From a virus (Duplodnaviria > Caudoviricetes): a stretch of DNA of 34,478 bases. The stretch lies in the IMG/VR virus record IMGVR_UViG_3300011433_000007, positions 1 to 34,478 of that record; one strand, written 5' to 3'. The notes beneath the pieces are model-generated. The model did no database searches. It worked only from the letters and a program-made list of their open reading frames with translations, and was not told the origin of the DNA. Below are positions 179 to 32,216 of the stretch, piece by piece. The position numbers were made by a program, and so were the translations under genes. The first letter of the stretch is position 1, and every line of letters starts with the position of its first letter.

Positions 179-607
179 TTAGAGTTTCCCAGCCAGCCGG
201 CGTCTCTGTTTTTCTCGATACAGCAAGACGCAGAAGTCGATCAACTTGCCGCGCGTTGGACATGACCCGTCGCGTTCTTCTTTATCGCTAGAACTCGGAT
301 CATTTAGTTGTTCTCGTAGAAGGTCCGTAGGGATGGCGATATGAACACCAGTGTCTCCGATAATGAACACCCACATCGCCGCCGTTGTGACATTGATTCC
401 AGACGGGGCAAATACACCAGACCGGCCTTTATCGCAGTGGGTTTCTACGTAGATCCTGTGGTCAAGAAACCGCTTACGCTTTACCTCAACGGCAGCGTTG
501 CCGTTTGCGATCCAGTCTAAAAACTCACCGATCTGTAATTCACCCTGGTGTCCATATGCGAGGTCAATGTCAAATCGCGGTTCTGCCTTACCCAATTGAA
601 TGCTCAT
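179..607 (-). CDS. Putative PD-(D/E)XK-like nuclease-fold phage protein
   Basis: Motif pattern FDIDLAYG..GE...VEVK...IYVE...PSGINVTTA. Start set at ATG 607 (ATGA overlap with the methyltransferase stop). Confidence 0.6.
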   Translation of the reverse strand: MSIQLGKAEPRFDIDLAYGHQGELQIGEFLDWIANGNAAVEVKRKRFLDHRIYVETHCDKGRSGVFAPSGINVTTAAMWVFIIGDTGVHIAIPTDLLREQLNDPSSSDKEERDGSCPTRGKLIDFCVLLYREKQRRRLAGKL

Positions 608-1740
608 GCTGCCTGATTTCCCCACGCATCCCAGCCATCACGCGGGACGCGTGAGAACATTTCCAACTTCGGAAATTCCGGATACATGCGCTCAATCAGT
701 TCGTAGAACTCAACCGGCTTCGCGCTATGTGCCGTGCGTGGTGACTTCACTACTGACGCCGGTCGGTTCGATGGGGCCGGTGTCGGTGGCTGGCCCTTCG
801 TAGCAATCAACAGCAACTCGTGCTGCTGGCGAGCGTAGTAGCCCATCCCGATCTGGTCCTTCACCCACACCATTGACGTCCGGTAGTTAAACCCCCACGA
901 CTCGATCACGCGCATCGCCTCAGCCAACTTCGGACTCGTGGCCCAGAGAAATAAGACCGCGTCATCGGTCGTCACGTCTGCGAGTGGCAGCGCGCAGATG
1001 TCGTCCAGCTCCATCGTTGGATACTGGTTTTCAATGGCGCGGCTTTCCGTCTCGACGTGTTCGTACTTCCAGGGCGGGTCAGCGTAGATGAGTGGGTAGC
1101 GACGGCCAGTAATTAGAGGCGCACTACCACGCGAGATGTCGGCCAGTTTCTCGACTCGTTCCTGCCGTCGCTCTTCTAGTCGCTGAGCACGGATCTCTTT
1201 CGCGGCCTTCAAGATTTCGACTTCCCCGCGTGCCACCAGTGCCTGCTGTTTTGCTCTTGTCAGTTCCGAAGAGATAACGGCCGCAGTGCTTACGGCCACA
1301 TCTCCACGCTCCACAGCCTGTATTAATTCTGGTGCGCCATCATCAAGAACCGCTTGTCCAGTAAAAACAGAGCGCCGCGACACGTTCAATAACTCAGCGG
1401 CCTGCTCCGCTGCATCTTCCCCTGGGTGCAAATTTGCACTTAAGATTTGCTTAATACGCGCCGCCACTATGGTTCGCTGGGATTCGTCCAGGTGCCGCCG
1501 GTGTAGGTTAAGACTAACGACGAACGCCACGAGCGACCCGTGGCCGTCCCACGTCCGATAGTCAGGCTTGACGCCAGCGCGTTCACACGCAAGGAACCGA
1601 TTCCGGCCATCGATAATGCGCCCGTCGTCATGCAGCCAGATCGGTTCTCGTAATCCGTTCGCGGCGATGTCCTGGGCAAGCTCAGACAGTTCTCGCTCGC
1701 CCATCAGTGGAAAGATGTTTGCTACGTCGTGAAACGTCAT
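604..1740 (-). CDS. ParB-like N-terminal domain fused to MT-A70 family adenine methyltransferase
   Basis: N-term LAQDIAANGLREPI...IIDGRNRFLAC; C-term IYADPPW, LFLWAT, WGFNYRT..VWVK..IGMGYY.R..HELLL, HSAKP, LEMFSR..R.GW..WGNQ. Start at ATG 1740 (ATGA overlap). Confidence 0.9.
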   Translation of the reverse strand: MTFHDVANIFPLMGERELSELAQDIAANGLREPIWLHDDGRIIDGRNRFLACERAGVKPDYRTWDGHGSLVAFVVSLNLHRRHLDESQRTIVAARIKQILSANLHPGEDAAEQAAELLNVSRRSVFTGQAVLDDGAPELIQAVERGDVAVSTAAVISSELTRAKQQALVARGEVEILKAAKEIRAQRLEERRQERVEKLADISRGSAPLITGRRYPLIYADPPWKYEHVETESRAIENQYPTMELDDICALPLADVTTDDAVLFLWATSPKLAEAMRVIESWGFNYRTSMVWVKDQIGMGYYARQQHELLLIATKGQPPTPAPSNRPASVVKSPRTAHSAKPVEFYELIERMYPEFPKLEMFSRVPRDGWDAWGNQAA

Positions 1741-2066
1741 TTCACCCCCGCCACAGTCTTGGACTCTGGTGAAGTCAGTCCAGCGCCACAAGCCGAGCAA
1801 ATCTGCATCTCCGATTGTTCACACTCGTACAATTCACACAAAGTCAGCGGCAGTGCGTGTTTGTAGCAGTAGTCGCAATAGATCCACCTGCCACACCCAC
1901 GCGATCTCGTCACCCAAACATGAACCACGTCTTCCTGTTTTGCGAGTCGGAATGTTGGGCGGATGACGCCATTGGGAAGCCACGCTTCGCCACCGGGCCA
2001 TCCTTTCAAACGACCACCACTTAGGTCTTTGAGTGGTATTGACTCGGAAAGATCCAAACACTTCAC
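1737..2066 (-). CDS. Hypothetical protein with CxxC pairs
   Basis: GTG 2066 overlaps the upstream stop (GTGA); CDYC and CSAC motifs. Confidence 0.55.
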   Translation of the reverse strand: MKCLDLSESIPLKDLSGGRLKGWPGGEAWLPNGVIRPTFRLAKQEDVVHVWVTRSRGCGRWIYCDYCYKHALPLTLCELYECEQSEMQICSACGAGLTSPESKTVAGVK

Positions 2067-7944: not shown

Positions 7945-7949
7945 AGGAC

Positions 7950-7981
7950 ATAGTAAACACTAAGCCACTTGCTATTGTCAA
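7950..7981 (-). promoter_or_regulatory. Candidate leftward (early) promoter TTGACA-N20-TACTAT
   Basis: Consensus -35 at 7981-7976 and near-consensus -10 at 7955-7950, 5 nt before GTG 7944. The 20-nt spacer is atypical. Confidence 0.5.
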
Positions 7982-7997
7982 CCAATTGTTTTACGCT
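7969..7997 (+). promoter_or_regulatory. Candidate rightward sigma70-type promoter TTGCTA-N17-TACGCT
   Basis: 17-nt spacer, TAnnnT -10, AT-rich intergenic region, followed by AAGGAG (8006-8011) and ATG 8019. Confidence 0.55.
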
Positions 7998-8018
7998 GCG
8001 TTTATAAGGAGTGGTTTT

Positions 8019-8513
8019 ATGAAACAGCTAACCCTCGTCGCCGCGCTCGTCGTCCTGCCGTCCGTCGTATTCGCGCAATCACCGATTCCGATCTATGTCT
8101 TCACCACACACGACGCGACAGGGCTGGTCGCGCTCGAGGACACGTCGAAGGAACGGACCACGGCCGTCGCGGACATGAAGAAACGACTGGCGAAGAATCA
8201 GACTGTGCGCCTCGTGGACACGCCCGACGCGGCGACAGTCACCATCGAAGTCGTGGGCGCCGGCATGGAATGGACCAGACAGGGCTCCGCGGTCACGACG
8301 TATGTCGGCAACGGACAGGCCGTCACCAGGCAGGGACCGAACACGCCCGAGGCCAGCGCCCGCGCCATGCTTCGCAGCGGTACGTTTGAGACACAGATCG
8401 ACGCGAGCCTTGGGCCGTTCGGTCGGAGCTATGGCGAGAACCTCGCTCGCAAAGTGGAGACATGGCTCGAGAAGAACAGGGCGACGCTTACCGCTGCACC
8501 GCCAGCACCGTAA
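8019..8513 (+). CDS. Exported protein with Sec signal peptide (moron / superinfection-exclusion candidate)
   Basis: RBS AAGGAG; MKQLTLVAALVVLPSVVFA|Q signal; own promoter; opposite strand to its neighbours. Confidence 0.8.
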   Translation: MKQLTLVAALVVLPSVVFAQSPIPIYVFTTHDATGLVALEDTSKERTTAVADMKKRLAKNQTVRLVDTPDAATVTIEVVGAGMEWTRQGSAVTTYVGNGQAVTRQGPNTPEASARAMLRSGTFETQIDASLGPFGRSYGENLARKVETWLEKNRATLTAAPPAP

Positions 8514-8516
8514 ACG

Positions 8517-22014: not shown

Positions 22015-23106
22015 TCATGCGGCCGCCAATGAAAGGAGCTGTTGTAGATCCCCGAGCACCGTCTTGGTGCGGTGAATCCACGAAGCCTCTGCCACGCGGG
22101 CAGGGAGTGCCGCCGCCAGTCGAGATCGGCCGGCGTCATCCGCCAGCCAGCGTCGAATTAAGGCTGCCGCCTCAATCGGAGAGCGGAACATCGGCACGCT
22201 GTCGCCGAAGACTTCCACTGATTCCGATCGGTAGTCCGAGAGAAAGAACGTGCCGCACGCCGCTAATTCATAGGCGCGCGGATTGATGGATTCTGCATGG
22301 GCAATCTGTGCGGCGTCCGGCCCCCACCCTTGCGAGGTGCGATATAGGTTCAGGCCGATCTTCGCGCGGCGATACAACAGCGTGGCTTGCTCGTTCGCGA
22401 TCGGCCCGCCCTGCAGACACTTCCGAACCTGCGGATTCAGCCGCGACTTTTCCCACGACCCGTACAGGCCGAGATCGATCCCGCTCCAGTCGATGGAGTT
22501 GAACCAGCGCACCCGCTCTCGGAACGCCGTCCCCACGAACACCACGTCATGCGCCGGCACGCTGTCATCAATCGGCAGATCCGTCCGATGCACCATCGGG
22601 TTGAACGCATGCGGGAGATACCCGAATCTCGGATTCACCGCACGAAAGGTCTTGACCACGCTGCGCTCGTTCGTCCATCCGCCATCCACGATCTGCGCCA
22701 CCTTGATCTCAGAGTCGTGATCGTACGGAGACTCGGTGAACAACACGACCACCCTGACGCCGGCGTCTTTCAACATGACGATCACGTCCGGATGCAACAG
22801 CATCGCGGAGACCACCAGCACGACGTCCACGTGATGGCGCAGCGCCATCTCGAGCGCCCCAATGCTCGCGTGGTAGCTCATATCCACGGCGTTGGGCTTT
22901 TCGAGATCGGGCTGGGTTTTCTTGAGCCGACGCCAGCGGTAATGCAACGCGGCACGGGAATCATCCAGGCGTTGATCGAGGCGGTACTGCACCACGTCCA
23001 CGTCGTGAAACGTCAGCCCGTGGTAAAGCCCCCAGTACACTTCCGCCGTAGCCCAACTCGCCCCCGGATGCGCGAGCAAAATCTTGAGCTTTCGCCGCGG
23101 CGTCAT
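22015..23106 (-). CDS. GT-B glycosyltransferase, CgeB / Glyco_trans_1_2-like
   Basis: ESPY, YLPHAFNP..H, DVVFVG...ER, YRRAKIGLN.YR, NPRAYELAACG.F.LSD; ATG 23106 with ATGA overlap. Confidence 0.88.
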   Translation of the reverse strand: MTPRRKLKILLAHPGASWATAEVYWGLYHGLTFHDVDVVQYRLDQRLDDSRAALHYRWRRLKKTQPDLEKPNAVDMSYHASIGALEMALRHHVDVVLVVSAMLLHPDVIVMLKDAGVRVVVLFTESPYDHDSEIKVAQIVDGGWTNERSVVKTFRAVNPRFGYLPHAFNPMVHRTDLPIDDSVPAHDVVFVGTAFRERVRWFNSIDWSGIDLGLYGSWEKSRLNPQVRKCLQGGPIANEQATLLYRRAKIGLNLYRTSQGWGPDAAQIAHAESINPRAYELAACGTFFLSDYRSESVEVFGDSVPMFRSPIEAAALIRRWLADDAGRSRLAAALPARVAEASWIHRTKTVLGDLQQLLSLAAA

Positions 23107-23834
23107 GCCGCCCCCAGCAAGGACCGCACGACCGTGGGCGCGCACGCCGCGCACACGACGTCGGCGTCCATGTCTTCGAGGAAACCGGGTTCACCACAGC
23201 CGCGGCAATCCACAAAGCCTTTGTGATAGCCCTCGGGTGGGCGCGCAATCACCAGGCAGTCCTTCATCCAGATCGGCTTCTGGCCAGTCTTGGCCACCAT
23301 GTCCGCGATCCAGTCGAAGTCCACTTCACACCGCCGCTCGGCACTCACGGGCACCAGGCAGGCACGCGGAGCGGCCACGCAGCAGCCGGAGATGTTCGCC
23401 ACACGCAAGTCCCTGTCGATCCAGAGCCGAAACCGCATCCCTGGCCGGCTCGGCACCATGTCAGGCGGAGCGAGGAACTGAAACAGCACGCAGCGGTTCG
23501 GCTGGAGCTTCTGTCTCAGCCGCGCGATCGCCCCGTCCACATACACGTCGTCATCGCCCAACGCGCAGAAGAAGTCGCCCGTGGCGAGCTCGATGGCCTT
23601 GTTCAGTTGCGGATTGCCATAGAACGCATAGCCACCGTTGTGCGCGACGAAGGTGAAGCCGTAGGACTCCACGAGCGCCTGGACGCGCGGTATCTGCATC
23701 TGCGCCACGAACGTATCCAGCACAATCAGGACTTGATCGTTCGGCTGCAGGGCTTGCCGTTTGATGGACTCGAGCGTGTCCACCAACGTGTCACGGCCCA
23801 TCGTCGGCACGCAGATGGTCAGGCTCGGACTCAT
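23103..23834 (-). CDS. GT2 (GT-A) glycosyltransferase with C-terminal Zn ribbon
   Basis: LTICVPT.GR..L..TLESI..Q, N.AIELATGDF...LGDDD (DxD); CRGC...CAAC. Confidence 0.88.
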   Translation of the reverse strand: MSPSLTICVPTMGRDTLVDTLESIKRQALQPNDQVLIVLDTFVAQMQIPRVQALVESYGFTFVAHNGGYAFYGNPQLNKAIELATGDFFCALGDDDVYVDGAIARLRQKLQPNRCVLFQFLAPPDMVPSRPGMRFRLWIDRDLRVANISGCCVAAPRACLVPVSAERRCEVDFDWIADMVAKTGQKPIWMKDCLVIARPPEGYHKGFVDCRGCGEPGFLEDMDADVVCAACAPTVVRSLLGAA

Positions 23835-25488: not shown

Positions 25489-26841
25489 TTACGTTGAGTT
25501 CTGATAACCCTTAACTGGATTGGTTCCCGCGTTCAGCAAGTCGCCGTCCGTCCTGATGAACGCCAGGAAGGCCACCGACAGGAACTCGGCATACCGCTCG
25601 TCCATGCGGATCAGCGTGAAGTCCCGCACGTCGCGGATGATGTACTTCGACAGGTCGCCGAAGATGATCGACTTCGCCGAGATCGTCATGGACGCCATGT
25701 CCTGATTGATGACGATCGGCGCCCCGAAGATCGTGTCGGGTGACGCCGACACCAGGTTCGGGAGCCACAGCGGCCGACTCGAGGAATCGACAATCTGCTT
25801 GATCTTCAAGAGCGAGTTGTCGTTCATCATGAAGGTGCCGGGGCGGCGATACGACGGGTCCACCGCGTGATACAGCGCCAACAGGTTGGCGTAGGTGATG
25901 CCCGTGGTATTGCCCGTGGTCGCCTGCGTGAACGTCGCCGCGTTGACGATGCCGTTCGGCGTGCCCGTGCCTGTGCCCGTGGTGAAGTGGGTGTGCGACG
26001 GCCGCGCCACGCGCTCACCGAGCAACCGGCCCAGCATCTGCGGCAGGTTGACGGCGCTGTCCTGCATCAGCTCAACGCTCACCACGACTTCCTTCGACGT
26101 GTACTTGTAGGCGTCCAACACCAACTGGCTGAACGCGGCGTCCTGCTTCGTGGCGGTCGTGTTTTCCCCGATCAGCGTGCCCACTTGCGTGGTGTCGTTG
26201 ACGGTGGGAATCGGCAGCGGCCCGCCCGTGTCGGTCCGGAGTATCGTCGCGACCTGACGCATCCCGCCGTATTCCAGCAGCGCGATTTCGACTTCGCGCA
26301 TCGCGGCGTCCTGGATCGCGTAGCCGCCCGCGCTGGTGGACGCCTGCGGACCCGCCATCGAGCGGTACTCGTCGTGATACTGCTGCCAGATCTTCATGGC
26401 ATCCGGCGTCAGACCCGTGAGAGCGCGCACCGCCAGCTTGTACGGGAGCTGGCTGCTCTGGAGGTCCAGCCCGACGCGCTTGGCCGCCATCTGCATGTGG
26501 GTCGGGATCGCCTGGCTCTTGGCGCCGCTGATGAACCAGCCGCGCACGGCGTCCTGGTAGTCCCACGCGCCGGCCATCAGCCGCGATTCGATCGGGCCAG
26601 ACGGCGTGGGGTTGGGCTGGGTGATGCGAGCCGAGACTTCGTTGACCCCGCGCTCGGCATCTTCCTGCTTCTGAATCAGGGAGAGGTGCGAGGAGATCTT
26701 CTCGACGTCCGTGTGGATGGCGTTGAACTTCCGCTCTTCCTCGGGGGTGAGTCCTTCGCGCTTCTCGGCGTGAACCTTCGCCAGGATCTCGTTCGCTTCG
26801 TTGACGAGCTGGCCTTTCTTGAGGAGCAAGTCTTGTTTCAT
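25489..26841 (-). CDS. Major capsid protein, HK97 fold with N-terminal delta domain
   Basis: N-terminal coiled coil; GGYAI, VSVELMQDS, G.GTG.PNGI, RPLW, FGDLS.Y.IRD, R.DG; AAAGGGA SD before ATG 26841. Confidence 0.97.
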   Translation of the reverse strand: MKQDLLLKKGQLVNEANEILAKVHAEKREGLTPEEERKFNAIHTDVEKISSHLSLIQKQEDAERGVNEVSARITQPNPTPSGPIESRLMAGAWDYQDAVRGWFISGAKSQAIPTHMQMAAKRVGLDLQSSQLPYKLAVRALTGLTPDAMKIWQQYHDEYRSMAGPQASTSAGGYAIQDAAMREVEIALLEYGGMRQVATILRTDTGGPLPIPTVNDTTQVGTLIGENTTATKQDAAFSQLVLDAYKYTSKEVVVSVELMQDSAVNLPQMLGRLLGERVARPSHTHFTTGTGTGTPNGIVNAATFTQATTGNTTGITYANLLALYHAVDPSYRRPGTFMMNDNSLLKIKQIVDSSSRPLWLPNLVSASPDTIFGAPIVINQDMASMTISAKSIIFGDLSKYIIRDVRDFTLIRMDERYAEFLSVAFLAFIRTDGDLLNAGTNPVKGYQNST

Positions 26842-26842
26842 T

Positions 26843-27004
26843 GGCGTGTCCCTTTCGCTCGCTGGGCACGCCTGATACACAAAAAGGCGTAGCCAAAAGC
26901 GAGCACATCTGTGCTCTGCTATGGGCCACGCCCTTCCGACTCCGCGGGAGAGGTGAGCCGTTTATATCAACAGGCGCCCGGTGAACGCGTCACCGACACA
27001 CCTG
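26843..27004 (-). promoter_or_regulatory. Structured capsid-gene leader, candidate two-state RNA switch/attenuator
   Basis: Five manually identified stems, four of them in mutually exclusive sets; one has a U5 tail and one sequesters the SD (see findings). Confidence 0.65.
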
Positions 27005-27026
27005 AGATTCAAGTAGTCAGGATTGA

Positions 27027-27206
27027 TTATGTCGAGGTCGTTCGCATCGGTCTATTTACTACCGCCGAAATCACCTGCCGAATGAGGGCGGGGATGCTGA
27101 TGTCCTGCTGGCGGGCCAGACGATCGAGCGAGTCGTAATCATGCGCGGCAATCCGAATATCGATCCGAACGGGGTCTGGCACTTCCTGCGGGCGGCCGCG
27201 CTTCAC
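27027..27206 (-). CDS. Ribbon-helix-helix (CopG/Arc-like) DNA-binding protein
   Basis: MKRGRP...VRIDIRI...YDSLDRLARQQDISIPALIRQVI; GTGA overlap with the GT41 stop. Confidence 0.8.
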   Translation of the reverse strand: MKRGRPQEVPDPVRIDIRIAAHDYDSLDRLARQQDISIPALIRQVISAVVNRPMRTTST

Positions 27207-28852
27207 GAAGCCTGTTCCTTCGCCCACCGCTGAAACAGTTCCAGCGAGGGATGAGCGCACCACTCCCGCCAGACGTCCCGGTAGGCCGTTTCCGTGGCTT
27301 CCAGATAGCCCTGACGAATCGGAGAGGCATCGCACTGGTCCCGCAGCCGTGTCCGGATGTTCGCCAGTTCCTGCTTGCGCGTCGTGACCCACGTCACCGC
27401 CGTGTCGATGTACTGCTCCTTCGTCTCCACGATGAAGTCGGTGAGGCCGAGAATCGTCAAGAGGCTCGCCGATGTCCGCTGGATAATCCGGTCGCCAATC
27501 AGCGTCACCATCGGCACACCCATCCAGAGCGAATCGCACGACGAGACGCCGCCTGTCTGAGGCCAGCAATCCAGTGACAGATCCACCTGGCTATACGCCT
27601 GCTTGTGCGCCAGACTCGACGTCGCGAACTGAAACTCCACTTGCGGGGCTTGCGCGCCAAAGTGGGGCAGGATCCACTCCACCAGGCTCTTTGGATAGTG
27701 ACTCTTGAACAACAACCGGCTCTCTGGGAGTCGCTCGAGAATCCGCCGCCACACCTCAAACTCGTCCGCGTTCAGTTTCAATGAACGCTGGAACACGCCG
27801 AACGTCGGACGCTCCGAGAGACACGGCAGCGTGTTGGGCTGCACCGGGAAGCCCGACATGGGTTCGTAATTGATGACGCAGGGCATATACAGCATACGCT
27901 CGACGTGTTCGTGTTGCCGGTCTTCGGGCACCACGACGCGATCCGTCATCAGGTAGTCCATCGCCTTCCAGCCGACCCCGGTCGCATAGCCCCAGCCCGT
28001 GATCTGAATCGGCGCTGGCTTGAAGCAGAACACCGGCAGGCTGTTGCAGGCCGTATACCCGGACAAGTCCACGAGAATATCGATCTGATCGTCCCGGATG
28101 CGATCCCAAATCACCGCATCCGGCCAGAGCTTCCCCGGCTTACGCCGCCCATCTGGCAAGAACCCTTCATCCATCCGGAGATCTCGCCAGCCTCCACGCG
28201 ACTGATAGTCCACCGTCTTGTGGTCGTGCTTGTCGTGGGGGGTCGTGCTGTAGAAATATGGGATGACGCCTTCAGAATGCTGCAACAGAACCCGCTCGAA
28301 GACGGTCGCCGCGGAATGGAACTGGTAATCCCCAGAGACATACCCCACCCGTAACGGCCGCTCCGGATCGCGGTTGTGGTTCGCGTGCCCGGTTCGGCGT
28401 TTGTAATTGTCCGCCCCGTGATACTGCCACCAGAGATCGCGCTCCTTCTGGGCACGCTCCGCCGTGGTACTGGGCAGCGCGTCCACGATCATAATCAGGC
28501 GCGACCGCGCCTCCGCATATGTCGGATCGATCTCCAGTGCCTTCCGAAACGCTTGGATGGCTTCCTGAATCTTCCCCTGCCGCTCGAGCACGGCGCCCAG
28601 GGAGTCGTACGCCATCGGTTGCCGAAACTCCTCGTACGTTAGTAGATCTCGGACAAGAGGTTCCGTTTCATCCCACGCCTGCGCGTCGTAATACGCCTGT
28701 GCCCGCACGATGAGATCCGCCATCGTGCGGAGCTCGGCCTCTGTGCGGGGCTGTTGGCGACGGCCCAGCCGGAACACATCCGAAAACCGGGCCCGCTCGA
28801 GCTTGCCCGCCTTCCGCGTGGACCCGCCGTGGTTGAATCCCCGCTTGCCCAT
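27203..28852 (-). CDS. TPR-containing GT41 glycosyltransferase (OGT/SPINDLY-like)
   Basis: TPR AYDSLGAVL..QG...EAI..FRKALEIDP.YAEA; RPLRVGYVSGDY..HS; DQIDILVDLSGYT; KPAPIQ; FG.F....KL; VDLSLD.WP..GG....DSLWMGVPMVTL.G. Confidence 0.92.
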   Translation of the reverse strand: MGKRGFNHGGSTRKAGKLERARFSDVFRLGRRQQPRTEAELRTMADLIVRAQAYYDAQAWDETEPLVRDLLTYEEFRQPMAYDSLGAVLERQGKIQEAIQAFRKALEIDPTYAEARSRLIMIVDALPSTTAERAQKERDLWWQYHGADNYKRRTGHANHNRDPERPLRVGYVSGDYQFHSAATVFERVLLQHSEGVIPYFYSTTPHDKHDHKTVDYQSRGGWRDLRMDEGFLPDGRRKPGKLWPDAVIWDRIRDDQIDILVDLSGYTACNSLPVFCFKPAPIQITGWGYATGVGWKAMDYLMTDRVVVPEDRQHEHVERMLYMPCVINYEPMSGFPVQPNTLPCLSERPTFGVFQRSLKLNADEFEVWRRILERLPESRLLFKSHYPKSLVEWILPHFGAQAPQVEFQFATSSLAHKQAYSQVDLSLDCWPQTGGVSSCDSLWMGVPMVTLIGDRIIQRTSASLLTILGLTDFIVETKEQYIDTAVTWVTTRKQELANIRTRLRDQCDASPIRQGYLEATETAYRDVWREWCAHPSLELFQRWAKEQAS

Positions 28853-29485
28853 TTACCGCGCCATGAGATTGCGTTGACGTTTCCGCGCCATGTCCAGCGA
28901 CAGGCACCGCCGCACGTCCGAGTTGAAGACGTCCAGGGACCGCTGCGAAAGCGCCACCGAGGTGTCTTTGTACGCGGGCTTGCCCACGATCGACACTTCC
29001 GAGAACAGCATGTCCACGATCTCACGTTCGTACACGCCCTGTTCGTCAGGCTCCTCCGACCACTTCTCGTCGATCACGCGAAAGCCAAACGACATCCGCC
29101 GCACGTCGCCCCGTTTCAGACCTGCCGCGTGATGCGTGGCCAGCCATTCCTGCGTGGGATACAACTCCATCGCCAGGGCCGTACTCGTCTTTCGCAGATT
29201 CAGCGTCCCGGACAGCGTGCTGCCGAGGACTTCCCCGCCGTCGTGATTCCAGTAGGCGTGGATCTCTTCCGCGCTGCGAAGCGTGCGATCGACCGCGGCC
29301 GGCGCGATGACTTCCCGGAACGCAATCTCTCCGAACATCCCGCCGCGCATCACCTGCGACCAGGAATTGAACACGATCGGATTCCCGCGGATGACAGGCC
29401 GTGTGCCGTCCCCGTCATAGTTAAAGAGCGTGGAGGCGTCTCGCTTCTCCACACCCTCAGGCTGCTGCTTAGAGGCTCCGGACAT
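28853..29485 (-). CDS. HK97-family prohead maturation protease (S78)
   Basis: FREVI, WNHD...LG, RGDV..MSFGF, L.EVS.V..PAY..T.V; GAGGAG RBS. Confidence 0.95.
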   Translation of the reverse strand: MSGASKQQPEGVEKRDASTLFNYDGDGTRPVIRGNPIVFNSWSQVMRGGMFGEIAFREVIAPAAVDRTLRSAEEIHAYWNHDGGEVLGSTLSGTLNLRKTSTALAMELYPTQEWLATHHAAGLKRGDVRRMSFGFRVIDEKWSEEPDEQGVYEREIVDMLFSEVSIVGKPAYKDTSVALSQRSLDVFNSDVRRCLSLDMARKRQRNLMAR

Positions 29486-32216
29486 AGGTCATCTCCTCTT
29501 GAACTACTGCATCGGCAATCGCAGCGGGGCGTTCGCGCTCCCACCGCGTCAACAGGTGCTCCAGTGCGACAGGGAACTCTTCGGGATCCCCGCTCGCTAC
29601 CGCACGAATCTGTGCGACAGCGGCCAGTAGTTGCGGACGGACCTTGTTCCGCGTGTAGGTGTCCACATCAACATCTGAGTCGATGTCAATCAGCACTTCC
29701 TGCATGATGTCGCGGAGGGCATCGACGAACCGGTCCTCATGCACCGGCCCCATGTAGAACGACTCCGCCCACGCCAGCAACTTCGCCGGCGTAGTCTGAT
29801 TCCGCCGAGCCCGATCGCACTCGACCACGAGAACCTTGCTCGCTGCGGTGGCGATGACCTTACGACGCGCGGTGATCGTGGCTTGTCGTTTCGCAATGTA
29901 CGTGGCTTTCAATGCCGGCAGGGCAGCTTCAGCGGCCGCGCGTAACGCCTGCTCGGCCTCCAGCTTCGCCACCGTCTCGGCTAGTGCCTGCTCCGTGGCC
30001 AGCCGGTTCGCTGTGGCCTCTTCCAGGGCCTGTGCCGCCGCCCGTTTCTCCGCATACACCGTGGCCGTGGCCGTGTCCAGGGCTGATCGGATCGCCTCCT
30101 GCGCCTGCTCCGCCTCAACGCGCGCCGCCGTCTCTTCCTCGAGCAACTGGCGAGCGGCCTCGGCCTCGTCCGTGGCCTTTCTGAGTTTTTCAGCCGCTTC
30201 AGTGGCTTTCTGGTGGGCTTCGTCCGCCTTCGCTGCTGACGTCGCCGCCTCGGCCATCTTCGCCACGCGATCCGCGTCTACGGCATCCCGTTCCTGCTGG
30301 GCCTCCGCGATCGCCGTCCGTAACTGCTCCACCTGGTTCCAGGCCGCCTTCAACGCGCCCCGCTCCGTCTCGAGCTCTGAGGACGTCACGGTATACCGCG
30401 CCTCCGCCGCCACGAGATCGGCCTGCAGCTTCGTCAGCGCCAGGTCCGCCGCCACGACGGTCTGGTGCATGACCCGCTGATCCGCTTCCACCTGAGCCGC
30501 CCGCGCGGCCATCGCGTTCAATTCAGCCGTGACCCGCTCCAGTTCAAGAGCCGTGGCCGTCTTCGCGGCTTCCGCGTAAAACTGAGCCGCCTCGGCCTGC
30601 GCCCTCAGGTCGTCTGCTGCACGTTGTGTCGCTTCATGCTCGGCCGCGATTTGCCCCGCCCGTTCCGTGGCGTCCATCAGCAGTACCCGAAGCTGATTCG
30701 CCTCGGCTTGTTCCTTCGCCAACTGCGCCCGCAATCCGGACGCATCCACTTCCAGTTCGGACTTCGCCTCTTTGAGGCTCAGGTTGTCCATCTCCACGGT
30801 AGTGATCTTCGCAGCCGTGTCGGCGATGCGCGATTCCACAGCGGCCAGGGCAGTCCTGATTTCCTCCACCATCCGCTGTGACTTCTCCTCGTCGTCGTCT
30901 GACTTCGCGGCTGGTGCCTGTGGAGCTTGCGGCTTCGGATCCGGCGCCACCTGCTTGTCCACGATCTCATCCACGCGATCGAGCGGCTGGTTATTGGACT
31001 GAATGAAGTACTTCTTGCCCGCCCCGTCTGGCAGCGGGTTCATGTCTTCCTTTTCCCGCACATCATCGGCGCTCAGGAACCCGTTCTGGATCCCCTTCGC
31101 GTACGCCTCATACCGGGCCGCGGTATCCCCGCGCAACTTGCTGTCCATGTTGTGCTTGAAGAACTGGATCCGGCGCTCAGACGGCGCGATCAGTTGCCGC
31201 AAGAGTTCCTGTTCCCAACAGACACACCGCGGCTGCAATGTATCCGATGAATACTCGATGTTCATCTGCTCGACGCTGTTGTACGACGTCCTGATCAGGT
31301 GCTGGACCTTGTGCGGCGGCATCCGGAACCACCGGCACATCTCTTCCACCTGGTGCTGGCGGGTCTCGATGAACTGCGCGGCATTCTGATCCACCGTCAG
31401 CCGCTGGAACTTCATGCCCTCTTCGGTCACGATGAACTTGTGCGCCTTCTCGACGCCTTGATGCTGCGCGTTCACCGACTGCCGGAAGTTTTCCAGTGCC
31501 TTATCGGACATGCGGGTGGGATGCTCAAACACCCCACCAAACGTCGATCCGTTCCCGTAGAACGTCCCGCCGAATCGTTCCGCCGCCAACCCGAGCCCGA
31601 TGGATTCCCGCGCCATGTGGACAATGTTCCGCCCAGACACGCCATCGTGCGTCAGGCTCGGCAAGACAAACATCTGGTCCTGCCGCAATACATCCGAGCC
31701 GCCATCCGCCCGCGTGACCTGGAAATACAACCGGCCCAGATCATCGCGCCGCACGTTCACTCGGTCGGGCGTGATCGGCCACAACTGGTGGACCTGCCCC
31801 GACCCATTGCGGACGATCTCGGCGTACCCCATGCCATACGTCAGCGCATTCGAGGTCAAGAGCCCGCGAAACGTGAACGCCGTCATCTCCGGGTTGGGCG
31901 AATCATGCAGCAGTGAGAACAGTTTATGGTCCTGTAAGAGCGTTTTGCCGCCATTCGACTCCCGTTTGTAGAGATTCAGCGGGAATGAGGCAATGTCCGT
32001 GCTGATGTTGTTCACGCACGCCCAAAACACGGAGTACGTGTACGCGGTGGTCTCATTCACCTGCATCCCGGTGCTGGTCGCCGACGTAGAGCTCCAGAAC
32101 CCGGACCGCGCCAACGCCGGATCGCTGGACTGTCCATGCATCCAGTACCCGCGCTGTTCGGCTTGCCGCGCCAGGACCCCAAAGAGATAGGCCAGGAAGC
32201 CCTTTTTATCAGCCAT
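29469..32216 (-). CDS. HK97-family portal protein with long C-terminal coiled-coil extension
   Basis: VFWACV..IS..IAS.P, PNPEMT, AQFIETR, F.MPP, R..EDMNP in the first ~415 aa, then ~500 aa of Ala/Glu-rich helix. Confidence 0.93.
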   Translation of the reverse strand: MADKKGFLAYLFGVLARQAEQRGYWMHGQSSDPALARSGFWSSTSATSTGMQVNETTAYTYSVFWACVNNISTDIASFPLNLYKRESNGGKTLLQDHKLFSLLHDSPNPEMTAFTFRGLLTSNALTYGMGYAEIVRNGSGQVHQLWPITPDRVNVRRDDLGRLYFQVTRADGGSDVLRQDQMFVLPSLTHDGVSGRNIVHMARESIGLGLAAERFGGTFYGNGSTFGGVFEHPTRMSDKALENFRQSVNAQHQGVEKAHKFIVTEEGMKFQRLTVDQNAAQFIETRQHQVEEMCRWFRMPPHKVQHLIRTSYNSVEQMNIEYSSDTLQPRCVCWEQELLRQLIAPSERRIQFFKHNMDSKLRGDTAARYEAYAKGIQNGFLSADDVREKEDMNPLPDGAGKKYFIQSNNQPLDRVDEIVDKQVAPDPKPQAPQAPAAKSDDDEEKSQRMVEEIRTALAAVESRIADTAAKITTVEMDNLSLKEAKSELEVDASGLRAQLAKEQAEANQLRVLLMDATERAGQIAAEHEATQRAADDLRAQAEAAQFYAEAAKTATALELERVTAELNAMAARAAQVEADQRVMHQTVVAADLALTKLQADLVAAEARYTVTSSELETERGALKAAWNQVEQLRTAIAEAQQERDAVDADRVAKMAEAATSAAKADEAHQKATEAAEKLRKATDEAEAARQLLEEETAARVEAEQAQEAIRSALDTATATVYAEKRAAAQALEEATANRLATEQALAETVAKLEAEQALRAAAEAALPALKATYIAKRQATITARRKVIATAASKVLVVECDRARRNQTTPAKLLAWAESFYMGPVHEDRFVDALRDIMQEVLIDIDSDVDVDTYTRNKVRPQLLAAVAQIRAVASGDPEEFPVALEHLLTRWERERPAAIADAVVQEEMTYVRSL

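Follow-up and report, generated by a model that had tools for sequence, protein, structure and literature searches.

A conserved leader with two alternative folds, predicted to control translation of the major capsid gene, in a group of uncultured tailed phages

In this study, the leader of a major capsid gene was analysed in a virus record of 34,478 bases (the window), which is estimated to be 84% complete, so that 16% of the genome may be missing. The minus strand carries genes for a terminase, a 915-aa portal, a prohead protease, a TPR/GT41 glycosyltransferase and a small ribbon-helix-helix (RHH) protein, followed by the capsid gene. A sequence-only reading of this locus had reported a 185-nt gap between the RHH gene and the capsid start, and this length was confirmed (26842-27026). 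The genes and the promoter at the locus are as follows.

25489..26841, minus strand: HK97-family major capsid protein gene, 450 aa (PF05065, phrog_10, TIGR01554)
27026..27054, minus strand: sigma-70-like promoter by sequence match, with -35 at 27054-27049, a 17-nt spacer and -10 at 27031-27026
27027..27206, minus strand: RHH gene (PF01402), the 3' end of which overlaps the promoter

Among the best 25 matches from the 50,697 records searched, none was a cultured phage capsid with more than 41% identity to this one. To judge from the related loci (numbered with the prefix L), the RHH gene is outside the conserved unit and is present in a few relatives; among the matches listed, tblastn found it in L004, L026, L135 and L092. 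The TPR and GT41 (O-GlcNAc transferase-like) gene lies at 27203-28852 (minus strand), between the prohead protease and capsid genes, and a GT41 gene is also found upstream of the capsid in L001, L004, L018, L025, L099, L101, L107, L027, L114, L040, L041 and L034. Two further glycosyltransferases, at 23103-23834 and 22015-23154 (both minus strand), are located among neck and tail genes, and the glycosyltransferase genes are candidates for virion glycosylation. Elsewhere in the window, an MT-A70-family adenine methyltransferase with a ParB-like N-terminal part is encoded at 604-1800 (minus strand), and a minus-strand gap of about 570 nt (7945-8516), which exceeds the capsid leader in size, lies upstream of an HTH regulator gene.

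Within the leader, two sets of helices can be drawn, one that hides the Shine-Dalgarno (SD) sequence (OFF) and one that frees it (ON). The elements of both sets, from 5' to 3' on the RNA, are listed below.

26971..27004, minus strand: P1, the first hairpin (folded alone, -19.0 kcal/mol)
26924..26959, minus strand: ON1 hairpin (alone, -15.3 kcal/mol), formed by the upstream segment 26959-26945 and the 5' arm of P2, which it captures
26880..26938, minus strand: P2, the long OFF hairpin, with its core at 26935-26883 (core alone, -34.3 kcal/mol; pairing probability about 1.0)
26898..26904, minus strand: segment X in the 3' strand of P2, lying within P2 when OFF and bound to L when ON
26857..26904, minus strand: ON2 hairpin (alone, -24.7 kcal/mol), X and the P2 3' arm paired with L and the anti-SD arm
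26885-26881, minus strand: U-rich run after P2, read from the sequence
26843..26872, minus strand: P3, the SD-hiding hairpin, the loop of which is L (alone, -14.5 kcal/mol; pairing probability 0.92-0.93)
26863-26857, minus strand: L, the loop of P3 and ON partner of segment X
26855-26849, minus strand: SD sequence, inside P3

The RNA start is expected near 27019. The promoter was the only promoter-like site found between 24000 and 30000, and since 1.3 such sites are expected there, the match is weak by itself. Among related leaders, a sigma-70-like site (score of at least 8 of 12) was present 76-107 nt before P2 in 16 of 41, where 0.8 would be expected. A promoter-like site in this position, upstream of the whole leader, means that the transcript would carry the entire leader. 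For this reason, the choice of a transcription start site, one of the triggers suggested from the sequence alone, is disfavoured. Two metatranscriptome runs yielded short pieces of related capsid genes only, with no reads across the leader.

The folding energy of the leader was lower than that of shuffled sequences (z -4.67; none of 200 shuffles as good), and all five hand-drawn helices formed at their proposed places when each was folded alone. In the predicted ensemble of the complete leader, however, the two sets are far from equal. Neither ON helix was complete among the base pairs with a probability above 0.02, and forcing ON1, ON2 or both cost 12.8, 12.8 and 15.0 kcal/mol, respectively. 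The sequence-only reading had named the dominance of one fold with no accessible alternative as evidence against a switch, and this was half borne out: OFF dominates by 15.0 kcal/mol, and the alternative ON set is still conserved in relatives. P1 had been called constant, and its stem does form at 27004-26971, but in this phage its arms join a third fold, and among relatives it varies. The run of five U residues that was said to end the long hairpin is present, although it is partly paired with the base of P2. In the third fold, the P1 arms pair with the anti-SD and with the bases just before the AUG; this fold had the lowest energy when the RNA was taken to begin at 27019, and its probability was 0.07-0.09 when slightly different ends were used.

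The conservation of both sets was examined among relatives. Capsid-based scans turned up 154 loci whose capsid match was usable, and these yielded 87 distinct leaders; a long-hairpin filter kept 65 leaders and dropped 22, and 53 representatives remained at less than 80% identity. Sequence-only alignments of 32 type A and 17 type B leaders served for the anchored tests, and the removal of 5 near-duplicate or truncated rows left 44. Relative to the 53 representatives, this set lacks 10 leaders (with long spacers or divergent) and includes L170 in addition. All 44 leaders belong to HK97-type capsid genes, with capsid identities of 40-100%. The counts given here are of sequences and not of evolutionary events, and the p-values ignore relatedness, which the null controls share to the same degree.

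The order of elements was conserved as promoter, variable P1, segment U, P2, linker, P3 and start codon. The sequence and length of P1 vary freely, the conserved letters sit in the switching helices, and short motifs flank P1 in some leaders. As judged by eye, a GUG or AUG in segment U of several relatives is soon followed by a stop codon, without an SD, and the window has none. Leader types A and B are interleaved on the capsid tree, which was not used to count independent changes, and this interleaving suggests that leaders have been swapped between phages. In type B leaders (L025, L084, L092, L140, L150, L170), a nearly invariant 10-nt motif takes the place of the U-rich run; its sequence is the complement of a short motif close to where the RNA is predicted to start and, via G-U pairs, also of X.

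The OFF helices are supported by compensating changes. The lower stem of P2 was paired in 85.4% of cases and showed double changes in 9 of 12 pairs, with its central pairs invariant in 32 of 32 leaders. The P2a duplex was more stable with its own partner than with the partners from other phages (-20.8 vs -15.3 kcal/mol), and the same was true of P3 (-16.0 vs -11.4 kcal/mol); control pairs were flat in both cases. In type B leaders, P3 was paired in 87.8% of cases, and double changes were seen in 3 of its 5 pairs. Moreover, in L103, L104, L044 and L105, the OFF partner of L is the start-codon region and not the SD, and this masking of the start codon points to translation initiation as the target of the leader.

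The ON helices are conserved as well. In the 44 leaders, with the register taken from the sequence-only alignments, X and L could pair in 276 of 308 cells. In 2000 permutations of the partners, the number averaged 219 and never exceeded 242, and shifted registers reached 30-45% vs 90%. The pair types changed together: position 3 was CG in 30 and UA in 12 leaders; position 4 was CG in 23, GC in 11 and UA in 5; and position 5 presented all four Watson-Crick types (GC 12, CG 11, AU 9, UA 3). X was paired with L in 91.8% of cells as compared with 82.1% inside P2. When helix boundaries were set automatically in the 53 representatives, the score of ON2 was -27.6 with the native partner and -22.1 with the partners of other phages; for the control strand, the two values were -18.1 and -18.5. 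The extension of ON2, in which the P2 3' arm pairs with the anti-SD arm, was weakly supported (p 0.04). For ON1, the anchored energy was -16.3 kcal/mol with the own partner vs -13.1 kcal/mol with other phages' partners, as judged against two null controls; when boundaries were set automatically, ON1 did not stand clearly above its control, as it fell in the top tenth in 7 of 53 leaders and the control in 10 of 53, with median ranks of 0.29 and 0.46, respectively. In one fixed register of seven pairs (an 18-row alignment), the top 3 pairs alone covaried, and the lower part of ON1 has no fixed register. No conserved protein-binding motif was visible on ON1. The covariation that the sequence-only reading had called for was therefore found for both mutually exclusive folds, strongly for ON2, moderately for ON1 and also for the OFF helices.

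These data bear on whether the leader switches at all. One alternative is that the RNA keeps one static fold and that X:L is either a tertiary contact between loop and bulge or a side effect of short motifs that have been duplicated. The dominance of OFF in the predicted ensemble would fit such a leader. In addition, the window holds three similar stem motifs, and judged from this sequence alone, the ON set could be a by-product of these repeats. However, compensating changes in all four pair types are unexpected from neutral repeats. Furthermore, X is already paired inside P2 in 82.1% of cells and the X:L helix usually extends into the stem of the SD hairpin, so the two arrangements cannot coexist in full. 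A static fold is therefore considered highly unlikely, and the leader is probably a two-state translational switch on the capsid gene.

Between P2 and the SD, the U-rich run raises the question of transcription. As an attenuator, P2 and the U-rich run would terminate or pause transcription and ON1 would serve as the antiterminator, with polymerase speed or an antitermination factor deciding the outcome. At least 5 U residues in the 9 nt past P2 were found in 26 of 32 type A leaders, and ON1 precedes and overlaps P2. A run of four U residues, however, occurs in just 9 of 32 type A leaders, and type B leaders lack a U-rich run; moreover, the covarying P3 and X:L lie beyond the stop point and would be needed for translation only. 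Attenuation of transcription thus has a slim chance of being the function, and control of translation is the preferred reading.

The energies of the translational switch were estimated across the 44 leaders. The ON state lay above the OFF state by a median of 14.7 kcal/mol (IQR 11.9-19.8), and by less than 5 in 4 of 44. ON1 formed in 43 of 44 nascent prefixes, and in this phage it was the minimum-energy prefix fold for RNA ends from 26924 to 26894. Moving from ON1 to P2 required crossing a barrier with a median height of 4.7 kcal/mol (in this phage, 6.7) and brought a gain of 14.8, these values being findpath estimates rather than a kinetic simulation. When X:L was forced, the predicted opening of the SD rose from a median of 0.15 to 0.51 in the 44 leaders; changes of more than 0.2 were upward in 24 and downward in 4, and the latter 4 appear to be the start-codon-masking subclade. 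The predicted folds thus bore out the earlier claim that one fold hides the SD, or here the start codon, and that the other frees the SD.

Cleavage of the RNA could, in principle, move the leader between its states. In a processing switch, P2 would be cleaved by RNase III or by an endonuclease of the phage, leaving a 3' product in ON2 and a 5' product in ON1. With its bulges, P2 spans roughly two helical turns, and RNAs starting at 26919-26903 did fold into ON2, as did the subsequence 26836-26906. RNAs that begin at 26923 or further upstream, or at 26899 or further downstream, remain OFF, however. Two cuts in the lower stem would also take away X, and the apical loops of P2 are not conserved. 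Processing is accordingly regarded as a very improbable trigger.

A switch of five overlapping segments is proposed, namely segment U (1), the P2 5' arm (2), X with the P2 3' arm (3), the anti-SD arm with L (4) and the SD (5). In the OFF state segments 2:3 and 4:5 would pair, and in the ON state 1:2 and 3:4. ON1 would form first on the growing RNA, and in the folding model the P2 3' arm would then displace it over a low barrier. Because this barrier is low, RNA left unaided would end OFF, with the SD hidden (the AUG in one subclade). A host-type promoter would fire too early, and capsid translation would be locked until a later phage product is present. This factor would presumably block 2:3 pairing, that is, the lower stem of P2, on the growing RNA; X, once free, would pair with L and unzip the SD hairpin. 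An ON state that is conserved and yet uphill implies a trigger, and a dominance of OFF of about 15 kcal/mol argues for a triggered rather than a balanced switch. Two results speak against a simple cascade. When the P2 5' arm was removed in this phage (26836-26925 folded), P3 persisted and ON2 was not gained thereby alone, and in L235, P3 won even in a 3' fragment. In addition, the third fold opens the ribosome-binding site at a cost of only 5-7 kcal/mol. As a whole, the mechanism is put forward with middling confidence: a default-OFF switch, with an RNA-binding protein of the phage as the predicted factor that would open it by keeping the nascent RNA in its first fold, ON1.

Other kinds of trigger appear less likely. 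A pure kinetic trap is at odds with the low predicted barriers. Against a metabolite, it can be said that conservation is concentrated in the switching helices and that P1, as far as it was aligned, varies freely. An RNA thermometer of the cIII type, judged by the energy gap alone, would face too large a gap (15.0 in the window, median 14.7).

The candidate factors would be the enlarged N-terminal domain of the capsid protein and the extended portal. The N-terminal (delta) domain of this capsid is enlarged to about 165 aa and is predicted to be helical; the HK97 delta domain is a fused scaffold. Its coding region at 26332-26841 (minus strand) holds a clade-specific helical insert. Residues R72, R100, W102 and R160 were invariant in 115 capsid sequences. 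A long N-terminal region, with at least 159 aa before residue 170, is present in every one of the 64 motif-bearing capsids, and the leader architecture was found in 7 of 13 other long-N-terminal capsids and in 0 of 22 short ones. Two loci with long-N-terminal capsids, L142 and L145, share a different common leader without P2. The window portal gene (29469-32216, minus strand; 915 aa) encodes a portal domain to about residue 400, beyond which a long extension shows a weak coiled-coil match of the SMC-like kind. In the ORF lists of 6 loci, portals judged by ORF position were about 545-800 aa in the 5 motif-bearing ones, vs 411-431 aa in five further loci, which are leaderless; the sixth locus, the leaderless L083, has a 707-aa ORF that overlaps the terminase and would be about 410 aa if its start lies after the terminase. 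The correlations of both capsid and portal with the leader may reflect a single clade.

The same capsid domain could act in the opposite direction, by negative feedback. Fresh transcripts would be briefly ON, and free capsid N-terminal domain would bind P2 or speed the collapse to OFF. The distribution of the leader among long and short N-terminal regions, the four invariant residues together with the constant central pairs of the P2 lower stem, and the precedent of P22 scaffold autoregulation are all consistent with such feedback. Nevertheless, the low ON1 to P2 barrier indicates that OFF should form unaided, fold searches with the N-terminal domain yielded only generic coiled-coil matches to residues 1-71 and barely covered the insert, and the correlation may be one evolutionary event. 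Negative feedback is on balance unlikely. As a specific form of the preferred default-OFF switch, an assembly checkpoint could also be envisaged, in which a head protein (the extended portal or the capsid delta domain) would switch the capsid mRNA to ON by binding it as it is made. This form is quite unlikely on present grounds; if it were true, capsid protein would be made only once the nucleating machinery exists.

The specificity of the leader for this gene was assessed by database searches. The statement that no known riboswitch was recognised agrees with Rfam 15, which had no match in the window at the gathering threshold; below the threshold, the leader and 8 relatives gave miRNA or CRISPR hits with E 1.6-4.8. 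A covariance model of the leader matched the capsid leader alone in the window (E 4e-8, this leader being in the model), the next match having E 1.8, and by this model no second copy was found in the genome. Across 100 loci, all matches with E <0.01 ended at the capsid start, non-seed leaders included, and the model had no match in 5 bacterial genomes with distant capsids. A weak match (E 0.03) was seen at L232:442-581 (minus strand), where a long hairpin and a U-run precede an apparent non-capsid gene; it may be due to chance. A DNA-pattern scan returned 41 matches, of which 11 precede this capsid family, all 11 with L, and the 30 without a downstream capsid gene look like chance. A second DNA pattern found L235 and L231, which lie before such capsids and have the promoter, ON1, P2, X:L and P3. 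With regard to antisense action, one 12-nt probe from the P2 3' arm had 3 matches in the genome against 2.4 expected, and two of these were the hairpin itself. No literature on such a phage capsid leader was found. PMC10690425, which catalogues more than ten thousand candidate RNAs of phages, lay outside this comparison and may hold this leader family.

Taken together, the comparisons among relatives indicate that this is a real, conserved two-state leader, absent from Rfam 15, in a widespread group of uncultured tailed phages. Covariation in both states is uncommon for RNA switches, and here it is found on a major capsid gene, with capsids down to about 40% identity. The leader suggests that capsid synthesis is timed or dosed post-transcriptionally from a host-type promoter, and not by a late promoter alone. 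Moreover, the natural compensating variants are ready-made controls, and if the trigger were found, a new RNA regulator of phages would come to light.

Several known systems resemble this leader in part. Rfam 15 contains phage cis-regulatory motifs which, like this leader, are structured and tied to one gene family; none matched here at the gathering level. The P22 scaffolding protein is under translational autoregulation, that is, repression of a message that is translated. The likeness lies in post-transcriptional control of a head-assembly gene; here, by contrast, the default is predicted to be OFF, and protein binding is hypothetical. The lambda cIII mRNA has two alternative structures that are close in energy and sensitive to temperature. 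It is likewise a phage leader with two folds, one translated and one not, but the gap of about 15 kcal/mol in the present leader differs from the close energies of the cIII folds. In phage Mu, Com activates mom translation by opening RNA structure over the initiation region. The present proposal shares a phage protein that opens RNA over the initiation region of a late gene, but it differs in having two long covarying folds of about 120 nt, and none of the 50 window ORFs scanned, in a record about 84% complete, encoded a protein like Com. In the ermC-type translational attenuator and in the control of B. subtilis trpE, overlapping segments alternately hide or free the SD. The leader is built on the same principle, but with five segments where theirs have four and on a phage capsid gene; neither a conserved leader peptide with its own SD nor a repeat array was seen here. 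By analogy, then, the leader would work like ermC, trpE, lambda cIII or Mu mom control, a likeness of action and not a demonstrated membership in any one of these systems.
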